The position numbers were made by a program, and so were the translations under genes. Source: a virus. Taken from it: DNA of 33,589 nucleotides. Under the pieces are notes generated by a model. The model did no database searches. It was not told where the DNA came from and was given only the letters and a program-made list of their open reading frames with translations. Positions 5,293-33,589 of the stretch are shown here, piece by piece; positions within the stretch are counted from its first letter, which is position 1; every line of letters starts with the position of its first letter. The stretch lies in the IMG/VR virus record IMGVR_UViG_3300027822_000009. The stretch is one strand, 5' to 3'.

Positions 5293-5556
5293 ATGCGCTC
5301 AAGAGTCGACCTAAACCAGAAGAAGATAACAACACTCCTTAAGTCTGTGGGCGCCACGGTTCACGACCTTACGAATGTAGGGAGGGGGTGCCCAGACATC
5401 CTCGTTGGCTTCAGGGGTAAGAACCACTTGTTTGAAATAAAGCAAAATCGGACGTGCAAGTTAACTCCGCACCAGGAAGAATGGCATGCCGGATGGAAAG
5501 GCAACGCAAAGGTTGTATACTCCATTGAAGATGTCATCTACTACCTGGAGTTATAA
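5293..5556 (+). CDS. VRR-NUC / PD-(D/E)xK minimal nuclease (possible junction-resolving enzyme)
   Basis: Motif GRGCPDILVGFRGKNHLFEIKQ...KLTPHQEEW matches the G-x-PD...E-x-K core plus the downstream Q of VRR-NUC domains. 87 aa. Confidence 0.65.
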   Translation: MRSRVDLNQKKITTLLKSVGATVHDLTNVGRGCPDILVGFRGKNHLFEIKQNRTCKLTPHQEEWHAGWKGNAKVVYSIEDVIYYLEL

Positions 5557-6030
5557 ATGGGGATAAAAAAAACAGACCTTGTGGAGTGCGTGATTACACC
5601 AGCTCTTTTGGATGTGGAATTATTTTCTCAAAAAGCTGTGGACTTACTCCTTGGTACAGCAGCGCAAGAAAGCCACCTCGGTTATTACCTGAGGCAGATA
5701 TCAGGGCCAGCAAGTGGAATATATCAAATGGAGCCCAATACCTATAAGGATATTTGGGGGAACTATTTGTACTATAAGCCTGAGCTGGTCAAAAAAATAA
5801 AGATGTTCTACGGAGAACATGTCAGCAACAACTTTGAGAAGATAACTTACGACCTTCGTTACGCCACTGTAATGGCTAGAATACACTACCTTAGGGTCGC
5901 AGAAGCCCTCCCTGAGGTAGGAGATGTAGAAGGAATGGCCAATTACTGGAAAAAGTATTATAATACATATAAAGGAAAAGGGATCACTAGTGATTTTATT
6001 GATAACTACCAGAGTTTTATACAGGAGTAG
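5557..6030 (+). CDS. SLT-like lytic transglycosylase / endolysin candidate
   Basis: GTAAQESHLGYYLRQISGPASGIYQMEPNTYKDIW matches the E-S catalytic motif followed by G-x-x-Q-x-x-P-x-T of the SLT domain. Directly upstream of the holin. Confidence 0.6.
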   Translation: MGIKKTDLVECVITPALLDVELFSQKAVDLLLGTAAQESHLGYYLRQISGPASGIYQMEPNTYKDIWGNYLYYKPELVKKIKMFYGEHVSNNFEKITYDLRYATVMARIHYLRVAEALPEVGDVEGMANYWKKYYNTYKGKGITSDFIDNYQSFIQE

Positions 6031-6032
6031 TA

Positions 6033-6425
6033 ATGGGTATTTTTTCAAACATATTAAGCAAGCCGATTGTTGATGCAGTAGATGCTATTGGCAATGCTGC
6101 CGACAAGTTAGTTACTTCAGACGAAGAGCGAGCTAAGGCCGACGCCTTTATGGCGATGGTTAAACAGAAGCCCTATATCATGCAGGCTGAAATAAACAAG
6201 GTTAACGCAAAATTTCGAGGGTTCTACGACAATGGATGGCGCTCAACCTTAGGGTGGGTAGCGGCCCTTGGGCTTCTTCAGGACTGGGTAGCCCGCCCTT
6301 TCCTTGTGGCATGGGGCTTCCATATGCCCGACATTAACACTACGGAGCATATGACCCTGCTTAGCGCTCTGCTTGGTATTGGAGCTCTCAGCGCATTTAA
6401 AGAGATGAAGATAAAATCTAAATAA
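6033..6425 (+). CDS. Holin, GTA_holin_3TM-like
   Basis: The N-terminus MGIFSNILSKP...AIGNAADKLVTSDEERAKADA and hydrophobic segments after GWRS resemble the 3-TM holin family of gene transfer agents and phages. SD AGGAG upstream. Confidence 0.6.
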   Translation: MGIFSNILSKPIVDAVDAIGNAADKLVTSDEERAKADAFMAMVKQKPYIMQAEINKVNAKFRGFYDNGWRSTLGWVAALGLLQDWVARPFLVAWGFHMPDINTTEHMTLLSALLGIGALSAFKEMKIKSK

Positions 6426-7750
6426 TGGCAAACGTTATTCAGCTTCCTCACAGGTTTGAACCTCGCACTTATCAGTCAGCATTATTCCATGATTTCTTTG
6501 TAAAAGGATACAAGAGAATCGTCACTGTGGAGCACCGTCGAGCGGGAAAAGACAAGTGCTTCCTTAATCTTGCTGTAGCAGCAACGCAGATGAGAGTGGG
6601 AACATATGTTTATATGTTTCCCACGGCAACCCAGGCCAGGGATGTTATGTGGGATGGTATTGACCGCAACGGGATGAGATACCTGGACCACATACCTGAC
6701 CGTCTAGTCGCTAAGACAAATAACTCCAAGCTTTCAATAACATTTAAAAATGGCTCCATCCTAAAGTTTGGTGGAACTAATTATTACGACCGTGTCATGG
6801 GGACCAACCCCATAGGCTACATAAGCTCAGAAACTCAGCACCACAATCCACTGGCATGGGAATACGTGCGTCCCATTTTAGCTGAGAATGGGGGGTGGGC
6901 TATATTCAATGGGACACCTCGAGGACACAATCATTTTTACAAGCTGCTGACTCAGAATAAAAACAACCCAAAATGGTTGACTCGGGTTCTGACAGTAGAA
7001 GACACATTCAGAGACGCAGCCAAAACCATACCGGTCGTCACACAGGAAATAATAGATGAAGAACGAGCCAGTGGGATGTCGGAGGAGATTGTGCAGCAGG
7101 AATTCTACTGCTCATTTGAAGCCGCCCTCCCGGGAGCTTACTATGCAGCTCAAATTAAAAAAGCCTATGACGAACAAAGAGTGGGGGTATTTAAACCAGA
7201 GCCTAAATTAAAAACATACAGCTCTTGGGATTTGGGGATAGATGACTTTACGTCAATCTGGATAATACAGGTGAAAGGGTCGGAGATTAGGCTGGTTTCT
7301 TATTATGAAAACCGCAGGCAGCCCATGGACCACTATGCAAAATACATGCATGATTTCAAAAAAAAACACAAAGTTCATTTTGATATCCATTTCGCACCTC
7401 ACGATATAGAGGTGCAAGAATTAAGTTCAGGCTTAACCAGAAAACAGTATGCCGCTCGGTGTGGAATAAATTTTAGGACCGTTAAGAAAGCTTACATCAT
7501 TGACGGGATAGAGGCAGTTAGGGCTCTTTTTCAAAGGTTTCGTATTGACGCTGAAAATTGTGATTATGGAATGGAGTGTCTGAAGGAGTACCACTCTCAG
7601 TACGACCCCACAAAAAAAACTTATTCAGCTCCCGTGCACAACTGGGCTTCGCATGGAGCCGATGCGCTCCGGTACTTTGCCCTGGGTTGGCATGGCCTTA
7701 AAACTGTTGCAGGAGGGGTTAGAAAGATGAAAGATTGGGACCCCTACTAG
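6425..7750 (+). CDS. terL: Terminase large subunit
   Basis: 441 aa with a Walker-A-like RRAGKDKCF, an ATPase core (FNGTPRGHNHFY) and a C-terminal nuclease region (HGADALRYFALG). The start overlaps the holin stop (TAATG). Confidence 0.85.
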   Translation: MANVIQLPHRFEPRTYQSALFHDFFVKGYKRIVTVEHRRAGKDKCFLNLAVAATQMRVGTYVYMFPTATQARDVMWDGIDRNGMRYLDHIPDRLVAKTNNSKLSITFKNGSILKFGGTNYYDRVMGTNPIGYISSETQHHNPLAWEYVRPILAENGGWAIFNGTPRGHNHFYKLLTQNKNNPKWLTRVLTVEDTFRDAAKTIPVVTQEIIDEERASGMSEEIVQQEFYCSFEAALPGAYYAAQIKKAYDEQRVGVFKPEPKLKTYSSWDLGIDDFTSIWIIQVKGSEIRLVSYYENRRQPMDHYAKYMHDFKKKHKVHFDIHFAPHDIEVQELSSGLTRKQYAARCGINFRTVKKAYIIDGIEAVRALFQRFRIDAENCDYGMECLKEYHSQYDPTKKTYSAPVHNWASHGADALRYFALGWHGLKTVAGGVRKMKDWDPY

Positions 7751-8055
7751 ACGTGTAATTTTTTCTTGCAGTTACTTCTTATAATATGAACATCCGGAGG
7801 GGCTTCAAACCCCATAACCACAGTCTTTGTTTTTGAACTTATGTAGAAAAATTTCACACAGCCCTTAAAACAATAGGGTTCCGCATCTTTTTTATTTAAA
7901 ATAAATTTTTCCTTAAAGAAAAAGTAATCCCCAGACTTCTCGAATATTTTAAACTGAACTTTTTCATCCCCATTATAAGAGAGAGAGAGAGAGTAAATTC
8001 TCTCTCCCATATATAGAAGAACCTTTATCTCTTCTTTCAGAGTCAAGATTAGCAT
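7747..8055 (-). CDS. CsrA-like RNA-binding protein, atypically long (102 aa), with an insertion or internal duplication
   Basis: N-terminus MLILTLKEEIKVLL against E. coli CsrA MLILTRRVGETLMI. C-terminal KTVVMGFEAPPDVHIIRSN against NQVRIGVNAPKEVSVHREE, conserving G, AP, V and the R44-equivalent Arg. Last gene of the recombination operon. Confidence 0.5.
   Translation of the reverse strand: MLILTLKEEIKVLLYMGERIYSLSLSYNGDEKVQFKIFEKSGDYFFFKEKFILNKKDAEPYCFKGCVKFFYISSKTKTVVMGFEAPPDVHIIRSNCKKKLHV
7978..7993. repeat. (AG)8 / (CT)8 dinucleotide microsatellite inside the CsrA-like CDS
   Basis: Read directly: agagagagagagagag at 7978-7993, followed by taaatt and ctctctc (partial inverted repeat). Encodes SLSLS on the minus strand. 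Confidence 0.95.
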
Positions 8056-8056
8056 T

Positions 8057-8512
8057 TTAAATATCCAAAGGGTTATCTAAATCAAACCCATTACTGTCAA
8101 CTGGTGATAAAGGAGAGAAAGCCACTTCTTTTTCCCCGGGCCGATAGAATTTAACTTTAGGGGAAGGCGCGTATCCTTCTGACGCTTGCACAACAATCTC
8201 AACCATACCCTGCTGATTAAGGAAAGAACTCGGATCAATATGGCCTTCTGAAACACATAAAGAAGAATCCCCTACAGAGATGGCTAATTGCTTAAACTTC
8301 CATAATGCAGACATAGTCAGATAATCAAACACGAGGCCCCTATTTCCATCATCATCCTCGCATTGAAGTGTAAGTTTAATACAAGGGTTTCCGGACTGGG
8401 AAATATGATCAGCCGCTGATTTAACAGTAAAACTATAGGTACCATCACGCAAAGTGGATGTGGGTGAGACGGAACAATCAATCTTGTCAATATCAAATTT
8501 TGGGAACTGCAT
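8057..8512 (-). CDS. DUF669-like protein (ssDNA-binding-type partner of Sak4)
   Basis: The segment GTYSFTVKSAADHISQSGNPCIKLTLQCEDDDGN fits the DUF669 pattern. Canonical position directly downstream of an AAA_24 ATPase. SD GGAG upstream. Confidence 0.55.
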   Translation of the reverse strand: MQFPKFDIDKIDCSVSPTSTLRDGTYSFTVKSAADHISQSGNPCIKLTLQCEDDDGNRGLVFDYLTMSALWKFKQLAISVGDSSLCVSEGHIDPSSFLNQQGMVEIVVQASEGYAPSPKVKFYRPGEKEVAFSPLSPVDSNGFDLDNPLDI

Positions 8513-8522
8513 AATTTTCTCC

Positions 8523-9416
8523 TTAGTTTGCTAGTTCAGGATGCTTTTTAAATATAGCATCAATAATTTGGAGTCCGTTTTCTTCAGTTAAAGAAGAAAG
8601 TTTATCCACTTCAAATTTAGTAAGCCATCTTTGAACTTTATCAGCTGATATTTTCAAGGCTACAATTAAGTCGTGAATTTTTTTTCCGGTTACCTCGGAT
8701 ATCTGGATAGCTTTCTCGCACTCTTTTAGAAGGATCTCTTCTCCATATTTTTCAGCAATATCTTTAAACTCTAAGCTGATATCTTTCCCAACCGGGAAGG
8801 GTTCTTTGAACCTAGTCTTAGAAACATTCCCTACATGCCTCTTACCACGAAATTGAAGCTCAGCTTCAAAATCAAAAATATAACTTAAGGTCTCAATCCC
8901 TATCCCGCAAAAACCGATAGCTTCTAAGGTTTTTTTCCCGCTATAATCATCGGCAATCATTTTATATTTCATTTTCGCATGGGAAGTGATGATTATATTC
9001 ATATCAAGGCGCAGTAAAAGAAGACCTAAGTCAGTTAAATCTCCATTAGCAGCATGCTTATCCCTGCTAAACAAAGTTCCTATTTTTTCATCTTTGCCAT
9101 AACTTCTCTTGAGTCCCTCAAAAACTGGAGTGATAGAATCAATCACCAAAGTTTTAAACGGATGCTTTTCAAAAGTTAAAGACTTCACCTCATCCATTAT
9201 GTCATCGTAATCACAGGACTGGAAAATAGCCCCCTTATTTTTTGTTAGCAACTCGAGGTAATCCTTGTGTTCAGCTCCTTTTTCAGTGTCGATTATGTAT
9301 GGAGCCGGAAATTTAAGTGCCGTAGTAGTCTTACCTACACCAGGTTCTCCATACAATAATATCTTAGCCCTTTTTTCCCCGCATAATTCTGCAGGGTTTT
9401 TTCCCCGTAAAGCCAT
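8523..9416 (-). CDS. Sak4-like AAA_24 ATPase (RecA-fold recombination/annealing protein) with a C-terminal extension
   Basis: Walker A in KILLYGEPGVGKTTTALKFPAPYIIDTEKG and Walker B in LVIDSITPV. SD AAGGAG upstream. 297 aa, which I recall as longer than typical for this family. Confidence 0.75.
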   Translation of the reverse strand: MALRGKNPAELCGEKRAKILLYGEPGVGKTTTALKFPAPYIIDTEKGAEHKDYLELLTKNKGAIFQSCDYDDIMDEVKSLTFEKHPFKTLVIDSITPVFEGLKRSYGKDEKIGTLFSRDKHAANGDLTDLGLLLLRLDMNIIITSHAKMKYKMIADDYSGKKTLEAIGFCGIGIETLSYIFDFEAELQFRGKRHVGNVSKTRFKEPFPVGKDISLEFKDIAEKYGEEILLKECEKAIQISEVTGKKIHDLIVALKISADKVQRWLTKFEVDKLSSLTEENGLQIIDAIFKKHPELAN

Positions 9417-10225: not shown

Positions 10226-10241
10226 GGATACGAAGTGTCAA
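10213..10241 (-). promoter_or_regulatory. Sigma70-type promoter toward the XRE repressor operon
   Basis: On the minus strand: TTGACA (10241-10236), 17-nt spacer cttcgtatccatcctat, TACTAT (10218-10213). Confidence 0.5.
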
Positions 10242-10270
10242 CCTTTGTTATTCCGCTTAAGGAGAAAGCC

Positions 10271-11380
10271 ATGGAGTGTTACAGCCTAAAAGGGCGCGTC
10301 TTTGAAAGTCCGACTTTAATGGATTTAGAGAAGCTTTTCGCCTATCCATTTCGAATATTTTTCACCAACCTTCTCTGCTTCTCTGATAGCGAAGGTCGAT
10401 TCGAATGGAAAAAAGAAATCTTGATGGAGAAAATACTTCCCCTGGACGCTTCCAAATCTCTGGACACAATGGAGGCATTGAACGTTCTTCGTATGTACAG
10501 GATGATAATAATGTACTCTGAAAATGGGAATTATTACGGGCAGATATTAAATCTAAATGCATATATTGTGCAGTATGGACGCAAAAAAACCTCTAAAATA
10601 CCGGTTCCCAGACTAAAAAATGAGCTATCACGAGAAGAAAAACTACAATTAAATAACAAGAAAACTTTAGTTTTATCAGACGTGTACGAGTTTGCCTCTC
10701 GCAAGGCTATGAAAATAAAGAAGAAACACCTGTACAGATTCTATTTAATTATTCGAATTTTTATTTTCGGTGAAAAACATAGACTTACAAAAAAAATGAA
10801 TGACCAAAGTTTTCCTTTTATTCGTAAGAACAGAAGATGGGCAAAAGCTATAAGTAATATATATAATATATATATAAATAATATATATAATAATATTATA
10901 TATAATAATAATAATACTTACCCCCCAAATCGGGTTTTTGGAGATAAAGAGGACAAGGGAATGAGTTCGAATTGGAAAGAGGGGTTTGAGGCCTGGTGGA
11001 AGGCTTACCCTAAAAAATTAGAGAAAGCGAAATGCCGCCAGGTTTATCAAAAAATAAATCCGAGCGAAGAGTTAGCGCTTGTCATGCTAAAAGCTCTCAA
11101 GGCTCAGGTGCTAGAAGCCGGGCTTAAACAAAAATACGGCGCCTTTGTGCCAGAGTGGATTTATCCCGTGCGCTGGCTACAGCGAGAACGCTGGGAGGAT
11201 GCAGTGAATCTCGATGAAGCCTACTGGCGTTCAGAAAGTGGAAGAAATGAGAAAGCGCCTGTCTATGCCCCGGTAAAAGAATTTGAGCTGGAGGAGATGG
11301 AGGGGCGTCCTCAGCGAACAGCAGAAACTGAGAGGATAATTGCCGAAGCCAGGAAAATGGTGAAGAGCGCACCAAGATAG
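10271..11380 (+). CDS. Replication-organiser/initiator-like protein, two domains joined by an A/T-encoded low-complexity linker
   Basis: ATG 10271 with SD AAGGAG. The C-terminal domain carries the motif FEAWWKAYPKK...KAKC...WLQRERWED seen in phage replication-associated proteins. A possible internal start at 10961 would split it into two genes. Position is divergent from the repressor. Confidence 0.45.
   Translation: MECYSLKGRVFESPTLMDLEKLFAYPFRIFFTNLLCFSDSEGRFEWKKEILMEKILPLDASKSLDTMEALNVLRMYRMIIMYSENGNYYGQILNLNAYIVQYGRKKTSKIPVPRLKNELSREEKLQLNNKKTLVLSDVYEFASRKAMKIKKKHLYRFYLIIRIFIFGEKHRLTKKMNDQSFPFIRKNRRWAKAISNIYNIYINNIYNNIIYNNNNTYPPNRVFGDKEDKGMSSNWKEGFEAWWKAYPKKLEKAKCRQVYQKINPSEELALVMLKALKAQVLEAGLKQKYGAFVPEWIYPVRWLQRERWEDAVNLDEAYWRSESGRNEKAPVYAPVKEFELEEMEGRPQRTAETERIIAEARKMVKSAPR
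10855..10916. repeat. 62-nt uninterrupted A/T-only tract (TA/ATA-rich microsatellite-like); candidate DNA-unwinding element
   Basis: Read directly. The tract stays open only in the CDS frame (NIYNIYINNIYNNIIYNNNN). The other two forward frames hit TAA at 10855 and 10875. Confidence 0.9.
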
Positions 11381-32011: not shown

Positions 32012-33589
32012 ATGAGTGTAGAAAGTGAGACAGAAGGAAATCTAACTGGAATATACCTTCCAGAGAATACAACTAGAGATGTATCGGATTTTGAAACCGC
32101 ACCGACTACTGGTTTTTTTGATGGGCTCGGATTATCCGCGGCTGAAAGCCTTAGCTCCGGACCAACATTAAGCCTGTTGTCACAAGCCAATACTTTCTTA
32201 TCGCAAGACGCGAGACAGGGGAAAAAGTTAACCAAGGATGAGTGGGAGAAATCTGACTTATTCAGAGAAAGCCTTTCTTTTGATAAGCTAAAAACATCCG
32301 GTGATGGTGTCCCTGAAAGTGTTGCTCGCGCAGCTGCCCATAGATTAGACGTCAAAGAGGCAACCCAGGCTAGGCTCGGAAGAATGAACCCAGGCCTTCT
32401 TTCGGTAGCATCTAGATTTGCTGGCTCATCACTTGGTTTTGTTCTTGACCCTATTAACGTTGCAGCCTTTAAAGGCGCTAACTTTATGATGGGCAAAACA
32501 AACAGTTCTATTTTAGAGAAAATAGGTGAAACATCATTAGCAACCACCAGAAAAGCCGGGGTAGGTTTTAGTGAGTTTGCCTTGGCAACGATCCCCAGTG
32601 CTGCAGTAGAGTTTGAGAGTGACACAGTTTATGGTGAAGACCCTTCGGCAATAAATGCAATAGCCACCATCGGTTTGAACGCTGGTCTGGGAGGGTTAAT
32701 CAGGGGTAAGTTTGGCTTCCATCAGCCTATAACTAGAAAGTCTTATCGAGAAGCTGTTGAGACAGCTGCCAACCAAATGTCAGCTGGTAAAAGCGTTCAT
32801 GTTGATGAGATAATAAATAATGGATATCGAGATGCTCGCCTTAATGACAAGGGAGAGATAGAGAATATATCCCCTGAAGAGCGTGCGTCAATAGTTGCAA
32901 AGCAGTCAGAGAATAAAAAAACCATAGAATCACTTGAGAATGAAGAAGTTTCTATCAAGGATAAGGAAGCGTTCGATAAAAAGGTAAAAGGGATTGTCTC
33001 TGAAGACAAACCGCTTCATGCTAAGGATATAATAAAAAAAGGGAAAGAAATATTAGAGAAACCAGATTTTAAGCGGACCGCATCTGACCGTCTTTTTTTA
33101 AAAAAGCTACCATTAAACGATGAGATAAAAAAATCATTAACTATTTCCGGCACGCCAAAAGAGCTTAGGACTCCCCAGGACGAACAGTTTTTATCTGACA
33201 TGATTAACGGGAAGGAAGAGGAGTTTATAAACAAAAGAGTCTCAGAGCATAAAGAGTCGTCCGAGTTGATTGAAAAAGAGATTGGAGAAAAATCCCCGGA
33301 AGAAGCTCAAAGATTAAGCAAGGAACTCGATGGGTTTAACGAGAAAATTTCACACGCCGAAAACAGGCTGTTTGAGATAAAAGGGTCAAAAAAACCAACC
33401 AAAAGAATAACAGAGGTAAGAAAAGAGATATCAAAAAGAAAGAAAGAAAATAATATTTTAGAAAATCAAATTAAACACCATGAAACAGAGGATATAATCC
33501 AACAGGATTCAGGAAGACCGGTTGACATAAATGCGTTAAAGGCATCGTCAAAAAAGATTAACTCATACGAAGGCGACTCTGTAGTAAAT
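32012..33589 (+). CDS. 5' part of the wrap-around internal virion/ejection-like CDS (continues at 128..346)
   Basis: ATG 32012. The frame is open for 526 codons to the window end with no stop, so it is absent from the ORF track. It makes the antisense 217-aa ORF at 31972..32625 spurious. Confidence 0.7.
   Translation, partial: MSVESETEGNLTGIYLPENTTRDVSDFETAPTTGFFDGLGLSAAESLSSGPTLSLLSQANTFLSQDARQGKKLTKDEWEKSDLFRESLSFDKLKTSGDGVPESVARAAAHRLDVKEATQARLGRMNPGLLSVASRFAGSSLGFVLDPINVAAFKGANFMMGKTNSSILEKIGETSLATTRKAGVGFSEFALATIPSAAVEFESDTVYGEDPSAINAIATIGLNAGLGGLIRGKFGFHQPITRKSYREAVETAANQMSAGKSVHVDEIINNGYRDARLNDKGEIENISPEERASIVAKQSENKKTIESLENEEVSIKDKEAFDKKVKGIVSEDKPLHAKDIIKKGKEILEKPDFKRTASDRLFLKKLPLNDEIKKSLTISGTPKELRTPQDEQFLSDMINGKEEEFINKRVSEHKESSELIEKEIGEKSPEEAQRLSKELDGFNEKISHAENRLFEIKGSKKPTKRITEVRKEISKRKKENNILENQIKHHETEDIIQQDSGRPVDINALKASSKKINSYEGDSVVN
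33463..33589. repeat. Terminal direct repeat, copy 2 (identical to 1..127)
   Basis: Read directly from the sequence. Confidence 0.95.

Follow-up and report, generated by a model that had tools for sequence, protein, structure and literature searches.

We describe a phage protein that, judged from its sequence, is a very divergent member of the CsrA family. In the reading that we favour, at somewhat under an even chance, it is a two-module protein of the CsrA/RsmA lineage that would pack the strand-swapped CsrA dimer into a single chain and keep one RNA-binding surface intact. It is encoded on the minus strand of the window, i.e., the whole stretch of viral DNA that was analysed (33,589 nucleotides), by a 102-aa open reading frame at positions 7747-8055, with its ATG at 8055-8053 and its TAG at 7749-7747. 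A complete CsrA-like domain occupies residues 50-99 (7759-7908, minus strand), where K50 corresponds to M1 and R93 to R44 of CsrA, and it is preceded by an N-terminal module, residues 1-49 (7909-8055, minus strand), which resembles CsrA beta1-beta2 over about residues 1-19 (MLILT...GE).

The open reading frame is real in the sense that all three of the gene-calling sources return it identically, and its place at the end of an operon, as given in the initial annotation, is confirmed. In this early operon, a Sak4-like AAA_24 recombination ATPase (8523-9416, minus strand; E 7.9e-20; PHROG 124) is followed by an SSB-like DUF669 gene (8057-8512, minus strand; Pfam E 8.4e-5, above the cut-off) and this by the CsrA-like gene as the last one, with its ATG 1 nt downstream of the DUF669 stop. 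On its other side, the stop of the CsrA-like gene overlaps by 4 nt with the convergent gene for the large terminase (6425-7750, plus strand). The Sak4-like protein has no relative in IMG/VR and three distant relatives in metagenomes; in the only one of these with downstream sequence, DUF669 is followed by a 98-aa HTH-like gene and no CsrA. Among GenBank phages, a shared Sak4 is found in Akkermansia phages only. The closest terminase is found in a Vibrio phage, where the gene order differs, and no relative of the terminase was found among 185,579 reference genomes.

The C-terminal part of the protein aligns with CsrA as had been claimed. Pfam PF02599 matches residues 70-99 with model positions 21-50, and the position-for-position correspondence is present in GFEAPPDVHIIR (codons 82-93; 7777-7812, minus strand), the CsrA beta4-loop-beta5 element, in which G82, A85-P86, V89 and R93 are the equivalents of G33, A36-P37, V40 and R44. 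The 45 extra residues said to lie in between the two ends of a CsrA are, in contrast, a mis-parse, since CsrA residues 1-17, which span beta1-beta2, match residues 50-66 in a register that was fixed beforehand (p = 7e-4). This means that the C-terminal half is a complete domain and more than beta4-beta5. When K50 is replaced by M, the Pfam alignment covers model positions 1-50 out of 53.

All family profile matches fall under their curated cut-offs. PF02599 scores 21.1 bits (E 3e-4) against a gathering score of 27, NCBIfam PRK00568, with residues 52-98 aligned to positions 3-49, scores 16.9 bits against 106, and TIGR00202 scores 14.2 against 70.1; PHROG 9500, annotated as "CsrA-like regulator", aligns residues 53-99 with positions 4-50 at E 0.045. 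Direct comparison with real CsrA proteins adds to this. The best ungapped Smith-Waterman matches are to Helicobacter CsrAs (z 12-13), with the motif GFEAPPD identical in the Helicobacter anseris protein (P0199), tblastn aligns residues 51-93 with residues 2-44 of many viral CsrAs, and MAFFT places all of 88 CsrAs on residues 50-102. In the alignment of 89 sequences, L53, G82 and R93 stand on invariant columns and I52, E59, V79, A85 and P86 on nearly invariant ones. The whole beta1-beta5 core is colinear and ungapped, and the equivalents of L4, G33, A36-P37 and R44 are kept. The C-terminal helix is absent: only 3-9 residues follow beta5, the chain ends at residue 102, and no helix is predicted. 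The view of the protein as a phage CsrA of aberrant length is thus supported by three independent profile libraries together with the alignments to real CsrAs. The Helicobacter-type flavour of the domain is a weak hint to the host, biased by which CsrAs were compared; a protein of the lysis module (5557-6030) has relatives spread across Bacteroidia, Ignavibacteria, Desulfobacterota, Legionellales and Campylobacterota, and no tRNAs or Rfam matches were found.

At the true N terminus (codons 1-5; 8041-8055, minus strand) the protein does begin with MLILT, the hallmark of CsrA beta1. From the amino-acid composition of the same phage, the chance of LILT after Met is estimated at p ~3e-5, and that of the looser pattern L[IV]L[ST] at p ~1.3e-4. 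In this first beta1, R6 of CsrA is replaced by Leu. With the N half taken by itself, hhalign aligns residues 1-7 alone, a Helicobacter-type HMM aligns residues 1-13 at 2 bits, and Smith-Waterman comparison with the CsrA P0197 gives a score of 42 (z 5) over residues 1-36, which is the best of 240 scores and is driven by MLIL and KEE. Residues 20-49 are rich in beta structure and have no significant similarity to anything.

As to duplication, the second beta3-beta5 unit that had been proposed in SLSLSYNGDEKVQFKIFEKSGDYFFFKEK does not rise above chance, with a best fixed-register z of 2.2-2.6 before correction for about 14 registers. When the N half is compared with the C half, no significant similarity is seen (p = 0.5), and with neither test significant an internal repeat at the protein level was rejected as unproven. 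When each half is required to be recognisable as CsrA alone, as in a tandem CsrA, the C half is recognised and the N half only over residues 1-7 to 1-19. What stands of the proposed internal duplication is that the beta1-beta2 signature occurs twice, in residues 1-19 and in residues 50-66; its boundaries do not stand, and a CsrA origin of residues 20-49 is not borne out. Since these residues lack significant similarity both to CsrA and to the C half, duplication of the whole domain is not demonstrated. The extra unit is a module in front of an entire domain, and there is no insertion between beta1 and beta4. Most simply, the N-module would be the remnant of an internal duplication, the distal part of which has drifted beyond recognition.

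The protein is an orphan across the searched databases. A word-indexed search of 5.8 billion clustered proteins returned only the protein itself, a full HMMER search of 1.84 billion representatives returned itself and three long repeat proteins (Big_9/cadherin, DUF7467 and an NSD methyltransferase) that were dismissed as spurious, and no meaningful match came from tblastn of the whole protein against 50,697 phage genomes. Genes for CsrA as such are common in IMG/VR, where at least 422 relatives occur. The proteins from 80 sampled loci are mostly 51-74 aa long; none of the 80 has an N-terminal add-on, and no long or tandem viral CsrA is found among them. A DNA-pattern scan of IMG/VR for GFEAPPD found one canonical CsrA and no long form, a CsrA profile search put no two-domain protein on top among the 8000 candidates listed, and a literature search found no paper on a tandem, pseudo-dimeric or monomeric CsrA.

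AlphaFold2 predicts a single compact all-beta fold for the whole chain (pLDDT 86.7, pTM 0.77). All five models reach at least 84, and the blocks of the N half score 86-93, although the alignment used covered residues 50-102 only, so that the confidence for the N half, where alignment depth is nil, may be over-optimistic. The N-module is predicted to contain strands 2-6, 10-16, 19-27 and 32-41, while strands 44-54, 61-63, 67-75, 78-84 and 89-93 coincide with the positions of CsrA beta1-beta5. Since the continuous strand 44-54 spans both beta5 of the N-module and beta1 of the C-domain, nine strands cover the ten strand positions of a CsrA dimer, counted as two subunits of five strands each. Strand 2-6 is absent from the model made from the single sequence and is present only when the C-half alignment is supplied, which fits its pairing with the C-domain. 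The single-sequence model has a pLDDT of 66, and neither it nor its PDB search is informative; no helix appears in either model.

Foldseek against the PDB retrieved no CsrA chain and nothing significant, and a sequence search of the PDB gave only a chance similarity to Ig heavy chains. In BFVD, the best match is A0A6J5RUQ1, a 114-aa "Carbon storage regulator" from an uncultured Caudovirales phage (101 columns, E 8.6e-5), followed by several phage proteins of 81-106 aa with TM values of 0.6-0.74. The full-length predicted fold is alike in A0A6J5RUQ1, A0A6G5YD98 (96 aa), A0A2H4PHU8 (81 aa) and others, with 93-102 aligned columns, TM 0.58-0.74 and E from 8.6e-5 to 2e-3, but sequence identity is only 11-22%, and the likeness is one of predicted fold. 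From the models, a new architecture is plausible, and there may exist a wider, undescribed class of phage proteins of 80-115 aa that is seen only in predicted-structure databases.

To see how one chain could do the work of two, consider the canonical protein. As a rule, CsrA folds only when two identical chains swap strands to form a dimer, so that the beta2-beta3-beta4 sheet of each subunit is completed by beta1 and beta5 from its partner. Each RNA site likewise draws on both chains, taking beta1 from one and beta5 from the other, as is known from RsmE-RNA and CsrA mutagenesis work. The best-conserved parts of the phage protein, the N-terminal beta1 and the C-terminal beta4-beta5, are what we take to be the two halves of one such composite site. 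In the single-chain reading, the strands that a second subunit normally contributes would come from the N-module of the same chain. Judged solely from secondary structure and the established topology of CsrA, beta4 of the N-module (32-41) would form a hairpin directly with beta1 of the C-domain (within 44-54), MLILT at the N terminus would pair with beta4 of the C-domain, and VHIIR, as beta5 of that domain, with beta2 of the N-module. The outcome would be one canonical GGA-binding surface, made from MLILT and VHIIR, and one degenerate surface, and thereby a monovalent CsrA. That this is a naturally self-complemented CsrA, with a CsrA-derived N-module replacing the second subunit and with exactly one canonical RNA surface, we propose more tentatively, as possible rather than probable.

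The protein would be made early, together with the recombination genes, and would bind GGA-containing leaders, which would then be repressed or competed for without the two-site bridging that dimers perform. It would also be missing the part of the C terminus that is exploited by host antagonists. In this way a monovalent CsrA could take up single GGA sites, or vie with the CsrA of the host, and at the same time evade both sponge RNAs that engage two sites and antagonists that dock on the C-terminal region.

The same features can be read in other ways. The protein may be a strand-swapped homo- or hetero-oligomer with an appendage, so that a canonical dimer of two C-domains would act as a bivalent regulator and the N-module would be an accessory or an RsmN-like elaboration; variants of this are an exchange of strands with a second copy, in the open form of that architecture, and poisoned heterodimers with host CsrA, which is the dominant-negative mimic suggested in the initial annotation. 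The C-domain has a conservative beta1 (FILNKK, compared with LILTRR) and a beta5 (VHIIR) of its own, from which such a dimer could plausibly gain two RNA sites, and RsmN/RsmF show that an insertion after beta2 is compatible with the family. Furthermore, a chimera of residues 1-17 and 66-102 gives the best Pfam score (24.4 bits), and the characterised CsrA/Rsm proteins are all dimers (PMC13443453). However, a dimer leaves unexplained why an exact MLILT stands at the extreme N terminus when an internal beta1 is present as well. MAFFT, like four profile or pairwise methods, favours the placement of CsrA on one whole domain over its being split, the single chain folds compactly in AlphaFold2 (pTM 0.77), and no helix is predicted, in contrast to RsmN. 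We regard a dimer with an appendage as rather unlikely.

Another reading is that the gene is decaying or non-functional, a duplicated or fused CsrA that drifts and whose N half is meaningless read-through. Orphan status, profile scores below threshold, the loss of R6 and of the C-terminal helix, and a slippage-prone repeat within the frame would all agree with decay. Against it, the frame is intact, fits the gap between DUF669 and the terminase exactly and is coupled in translation to the gene before it, and the invariant CsrA residues are all kept; both halves have a confident and compact predicted fold, which is unusual in drifted sequence, and phage proteins of similar length share that fold. 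We regard decay as improbable. The repeat is a perfect (CT)8 tract at 7978-7993 (codons 21-26, Y-SLSLS; minus strand, (AG)8 on the plus strand), and the suggestion had been made that it is a phase-variation switch, by which slippage in replication turns the gene off and on in phage subpopulations. Its existence is borne out: no other dinucleotide run in the window reaches 6 units, and none that long arose in any of 100 dinucleotide-preserving shuffles, so a tract this perfect and unique is not expected by chance. The frameshift by one unit holds as well: at codons 21-26, one unit fewer or more brings in a premature stop, (CT)7 leaving 26 aa and (CT)9 leaving 53 aa. The tract has, however, other reasons to exist. 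It encodes a beta-strand of alternating S and L, and together with GGGAGAGAGA (7999-8008) it forms the arms of a 54-nt intragenic hairpin (7967-8020, minus strand; inverted repeat 7974-7988 / 7999-8013), the RNA fold of which has -21.2 kcal/mol (z -3.7) and is matched in stability by none of 200 shuffles. This hairpin, flagged as terminator-like with a CU-rich tail, offers an alternative explanation of the tract, namely as the arm complementary to a GA run. Eight dinucleotide units are also near the lower limit of what slips efficiently, and a switch would pay only if the off state brought some advantage, of which none is evident. The three available assemblies show no length variation, but they are 100% identical copies of one 33,462-bp circular genome and so uninformative on tract length. 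Of the readings considered here, the switch is the least probable.

CsrA is the textbook case of an obligate homodimer, the regulatory power of which is attributed to two sites that bridge paired GGA motifs. If the single-chain reading is true, a CsrA with one chain and one site is a ready-made in vivo test of what monovalent binding can achieve, an example of how a swapped dimer is turned into a monomer through duplication, and a phage route into the post-transcriptional control of the host in early infection. Phages often carry csrA genes, the roles of which are largely unstudied. Should the protein turn out to be an ordinary dimer carrying an appendage, it would only add another divergent CsrA to those of phages.

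In comparison with CsrA/RsmA proper (PF02599, and the Helicobacter/Campylobacterota type PRK00568), the phage protein shares the equivalents of L4, E10, V30, G33, A36, P37, V40 and R44, and its predicted strands 67-75, 78-84 and 89-93 match beta3-beta5. It differs in that CsrA starts with the domain, whereas here 49 residues come before a domain that begins at a Lys codon (AAA), and it does not fit the usual form of a single domain of about 55-100 aa with a C-terminal helix. CsrA-family genes are likewise carried by other phages and plasmids (the RsmM type of Pseudomonas aeruginosa phages, Vibrio phage csrA, PHROG 9500), also among early or accessory genes, and phage csrA alleles have been found in 30 of 2517 phage genomes (Sobrero & Valverde 2020, PMC7366521). 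These known alleles are canonical single domains, a few long ones of which carry non-CsrA tails at the C terminus; the Vibrio phage CsrA has 57 aa, compared with 102 aa in the present protein, where the extra module is N-terminal and the divergence far greater.

A rearranged CsrA-family architecture, without the C-terminal helix, is likewise found in RsmN/RsmF of Pseudomonas aeruginosa (4kji, 4k59), and in these PDB matches only beta3-beta5 align, with an offset. RsmN, which is a homodimer, has after beta2 one extra alpha-helix, about 20 residues long, while the phage protein has about 49 extra residues of beta-strand with a beta1-beta2 signature of their own and no predicted helix. The mark of the RsmN/RsmF subfamily, an alpha-helix between beta2 and beta3, is absent from both AlphaFold2 models, in which the extra residues form beta-strands. 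The nearest conceptual counterpart with a single functional surface is artificial and consists of two chains: in 2009, Mercante and co-workers reportedly engineered a heterodimeric CsrA in which one RNA surface was disabled. The phage protein would differ from it as a natural single chain, of putative monovalency.

The 102-aa CsrA-like protein is matched by CsrA profiles from three libraries, Pfam PF02599 (21.1 bits, where 27 would be required; E 3e-4), PHROG 9500 "CsrA-like regulator" (E 0.045) and NCBIfam PRK00568 (E 0.005), which agree on the register. Every one of these matches stays below its curated cut-off, and by curated score the protein would be placed outside the formal CsrA family. 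The direct comparison with CsrA is much stronger than the profiles. Residues 3-51 of Helicobacter CsrAs align ungapped with residues 52-100, with Smith-Waterman scores of 64-68, z values of 12-13 against shuffles and an identical GFEAPPD; in tblastn residues 51-93 match residues 2-44 of many viral CsrAs; and MAFFT places 88 of 88 diverse CsrAs on residues 50-102, with K50 opposite M1. In the MAFFT alignment the equivalents of the invariant L4, G33 and R44 are all kept, and so are most of the nearly invariant columns (I3, E10, V30, A36 and P37). The hallmark MLILT with which the protein begins, already pointed out in the initial annotation, has a chance of about 3e-5 from the phage composition, which rises to 1.3e-4 when the pattern is relaxed to L[IV]L[ST]. 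Since two independent, colinear pieces of evidence are at hand, the homology to CsrA, though remote, is secure.

The initial annotation had further parsed the protein as an N-terminal beta1, about 45 inserted residues and a C-terminal beta4-beta5. This parse is replaced here, because residues 50-66 (KFILNKKDAEPYCFKGC) match CsrA 1-17 (p 7e-4, in a register preset by the downstream ungapped alignment), with FILNKK as a conservative version of LILTRR, and the C-terminal half is, as aligned, a complete CsrA domain by itself. This domain opens with a Lys codon and is therefore not a separately translated gene. At the module junction (codons 48-49; 7900-7914, minus strand) there is an AAGGA, 7 nt upstream of the I52 ATT codon. 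It is pure speculation that this motif is an internal Shine-Dalgarno sequence, from which the CsrA domain would be translated alone with a non-canonical start codon, or else a GGA autoregulation site. The 102 residues also contain three cysteines in a phage proteome with 0.5% Cys, C62 and C66 (CFKGC) and C96 near H90 and H101 (7750-7872, minus strand). Within the CsrA-like domain they might bind a metal or form a disulfide.

In the N-terminal module, residues 1-49, the likeness to CsrA is confined to the start: hhalign aligns residues 1-7, a Helicobacter-type HMM residues 1-13, and the top pairwise alignment residues 1-36 (z 5), the latter being the best of 240 and driven by MLIL, KEE and G-E. 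The CsrA beta1-beta2 signature is thus present twice, which is suggestive of an internal duplication, a possibility already raised. Duplication of the whole domain is, however, not demonstrated by the sequence: residues 20-49 have no significant similarity to CsrA (best z 2.2-2.6, uncorrected), and the similarity between the two halves is not significant (p 0.5).

From the single sequence, AF2 gives a weak all-beta model with pLDDT 66. When it is supplied with an alignment of 89 sequences, whose CsrAs extend over residues 50-102 only, the whole chain is predicted with confidence (pLDDT 86.7, pTM 0.77, each of five models at least 84), and the first strand, MLILT, becomes ordered only when the C-terminal half is informed by the alignment in this way. 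The predicted strands are 2-6, 10-16, 19-27, 32-41, 44-54, 61-63, 67-75, 78-84 and 89-93, with no helix, and the positions of CsrA beta1-beta5 coincide with the final five elements.

To see what this may mean, consider the CsrA dimer, where the order of strands in the sheet is beta5'-beta2-beta3-beta4-beta1' and the RNA site is made by beta1 from one chain and beta5 from the other. Since a tight hairpin links predicted strands 32-41 and 44-54, beta4 of the N-terminal module would join beta1 of the C-terminal domain directly and mirror the beta4/beta1' pairing of the dimer. In that case MLILT might pair with beta4 of the C-terminal domain, and the C-terminal strand VHIIR with beta2 of the N-terminal module. 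A single chain would in this way close into a sandwich whose one canonical RNA surface is made by MLILT and by VHIIR with the R44 equivalent, while the second surface would be degenerate, because the N-terminal module has Phe at the R44 position. The same sequence could equally give an open, strand-swapped dimer. We infer that the single-chain sandwich is the most likely arrangement, and it accounts for the location of the two best-conserved segments at opposite ends of the protein. The protein would be expected to act as a GGA-binding translational regulator early in infection.

The gene (7747-8055, minus strand; 102 codons, ATG to TAG) is, as first annotated, the final one of a leftward early/recombination operon, because its ATG lies 1 base past the stop of the DUF669 gene (8057-8512, minus strand), which follows the gene for a Sak4-like AAA_24 ATPase (8523-9416, minus strand). 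It is convergent with the large terminase gene (6425-7750, plus strand), the two stop codons sharing the 4-nt CTAG at 7747-7750. As a simple scan gives no terminator-like site between the two operons, their transcripts would collide or overlap. The identical gene occurs in two further public assemblies, each 100% identical to the window. The window ends, 1-127 and 33463-33589, overlap by 127 bp, and these two assemblies, of 33,492 and 33,603 bp, cross the junction at 100% identity. It follows that the genome, of about 33,462 bp, is circular or terminally redundant, and that the window represents it in circularly permuted form.

Within the gene, the coding strand has a perfect (CT)8 at 7978-7993, the sole dinucleotide run of at least six units in the window, and no such run appears in dinucleotide-preserving shuffles; the repeat noted initially is thus real. 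With one unit more or one less the protein would be truncated, to 53 and 26 aa respectively, which provides the precondition for the proposed on/off switch. Phase variation through (CT)8 seems unlikely. The tract pairs with an upstream GA run, GGGAGAGAGA, in a stable 54-nt intragenic hairpin (7967-8020, minus strand; -21.2 kcal/mol, z -3.7) built on the inverted repeat 7974-7988/7999-8013. A simple scan classes the hairpin as a terminator-like site (8008 to 7983) whose tail is CU-rich, and within the gene it might cause attenuation of transcription or make ribosomes pause. At the protein level, the tract also codes for one face of a predicted strand, on which S and L alternate.

The rightward genes at 5293-7750 (plus strand) have an unusual order. 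A virion structural protein (343-2883; the PHROGs label is no more specific) lies ahead of the tail-fibre genes (PHROGs tail/tail fibre), and these are followed by a small endonuclease/resolvase-like gene (5293-5556), a PHROG 3108 protein (5557-6030), a holin (6033-6425) and, last in the operon, the large terminase. Further on, the replication-initiator-like ORF 10235-11380 (plus strand; PHROGs 16167/9474/270) contains a pure A+T tract of about 70 bp with 11-13-bp periodic repeats (10850-10918), translated as NIYNIYINNIYNNIIYNNNN. The tract resembles an origin unwinding element that lies within the initiator gene, as in lambda O.

Searches of 5.8 billion clustered proteins and of 1.84 billion representatives detect no homologue of the CsrA-like protein. 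The distant Sak4-DUF669 locus L004 has no syntenic counterpart; in this high-GC metagenomic operon (1828-2629) a 98-aa HTH-like gene takes its place, and small regulators of varying kind seem to occupy the position after DUF669. Foldseek finds nothing significant in the PDB, where CsrA is present only as single, splayed chains. Among the predicted viral structures of BFVD, a phage protein of 114 aa that bears the name "Carbon storage regulator" ranks first (101 aligned columns, E 8.6e-5), followed by unnamed phage proteins of 81-106 aa (TM 0.6-0.74). The BFVD set as a whole (A0A6J5RUQ1, A0A2H4PHU8, A0A6G5YEX0, A0A6G5YD98, A0A6J7WXS8, A0A2I7QK84 and A0A088F6N9; 81-114 aa, mostly unnamed) shares the full-length predicted fold of the present protein, with TM 0.56-0.74. 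These may be long, self-complemented CsrA-like proteins that form a phage class so far undescribed, and the upside of the present case would be moderate if this hinted class and the single-chain reading hold.

Phage-borne csrA alleles are already known from 30 of 2517 phage genomes (PMC7366521). Such genes are annotated in Pseudomonas and Vibrio phages, and they are common in IMG/VR, where at least 422 relatives occur. A literature search found no published account of a tandem, pseudo-dimeric or monomeric CsrA. The 80 viral CsrAs sampled are mostly 51-74 aa long, without a single case of an N-terminal module or second domain. Three viral CsrAs from IMG/VR (L047, L051 and L058, 94-133 aa) carry long extensions at the C-terminus, none of them a CsrA repeat, while the protein considered here has the opposite arrangement, with its extra module at the N-terminus.
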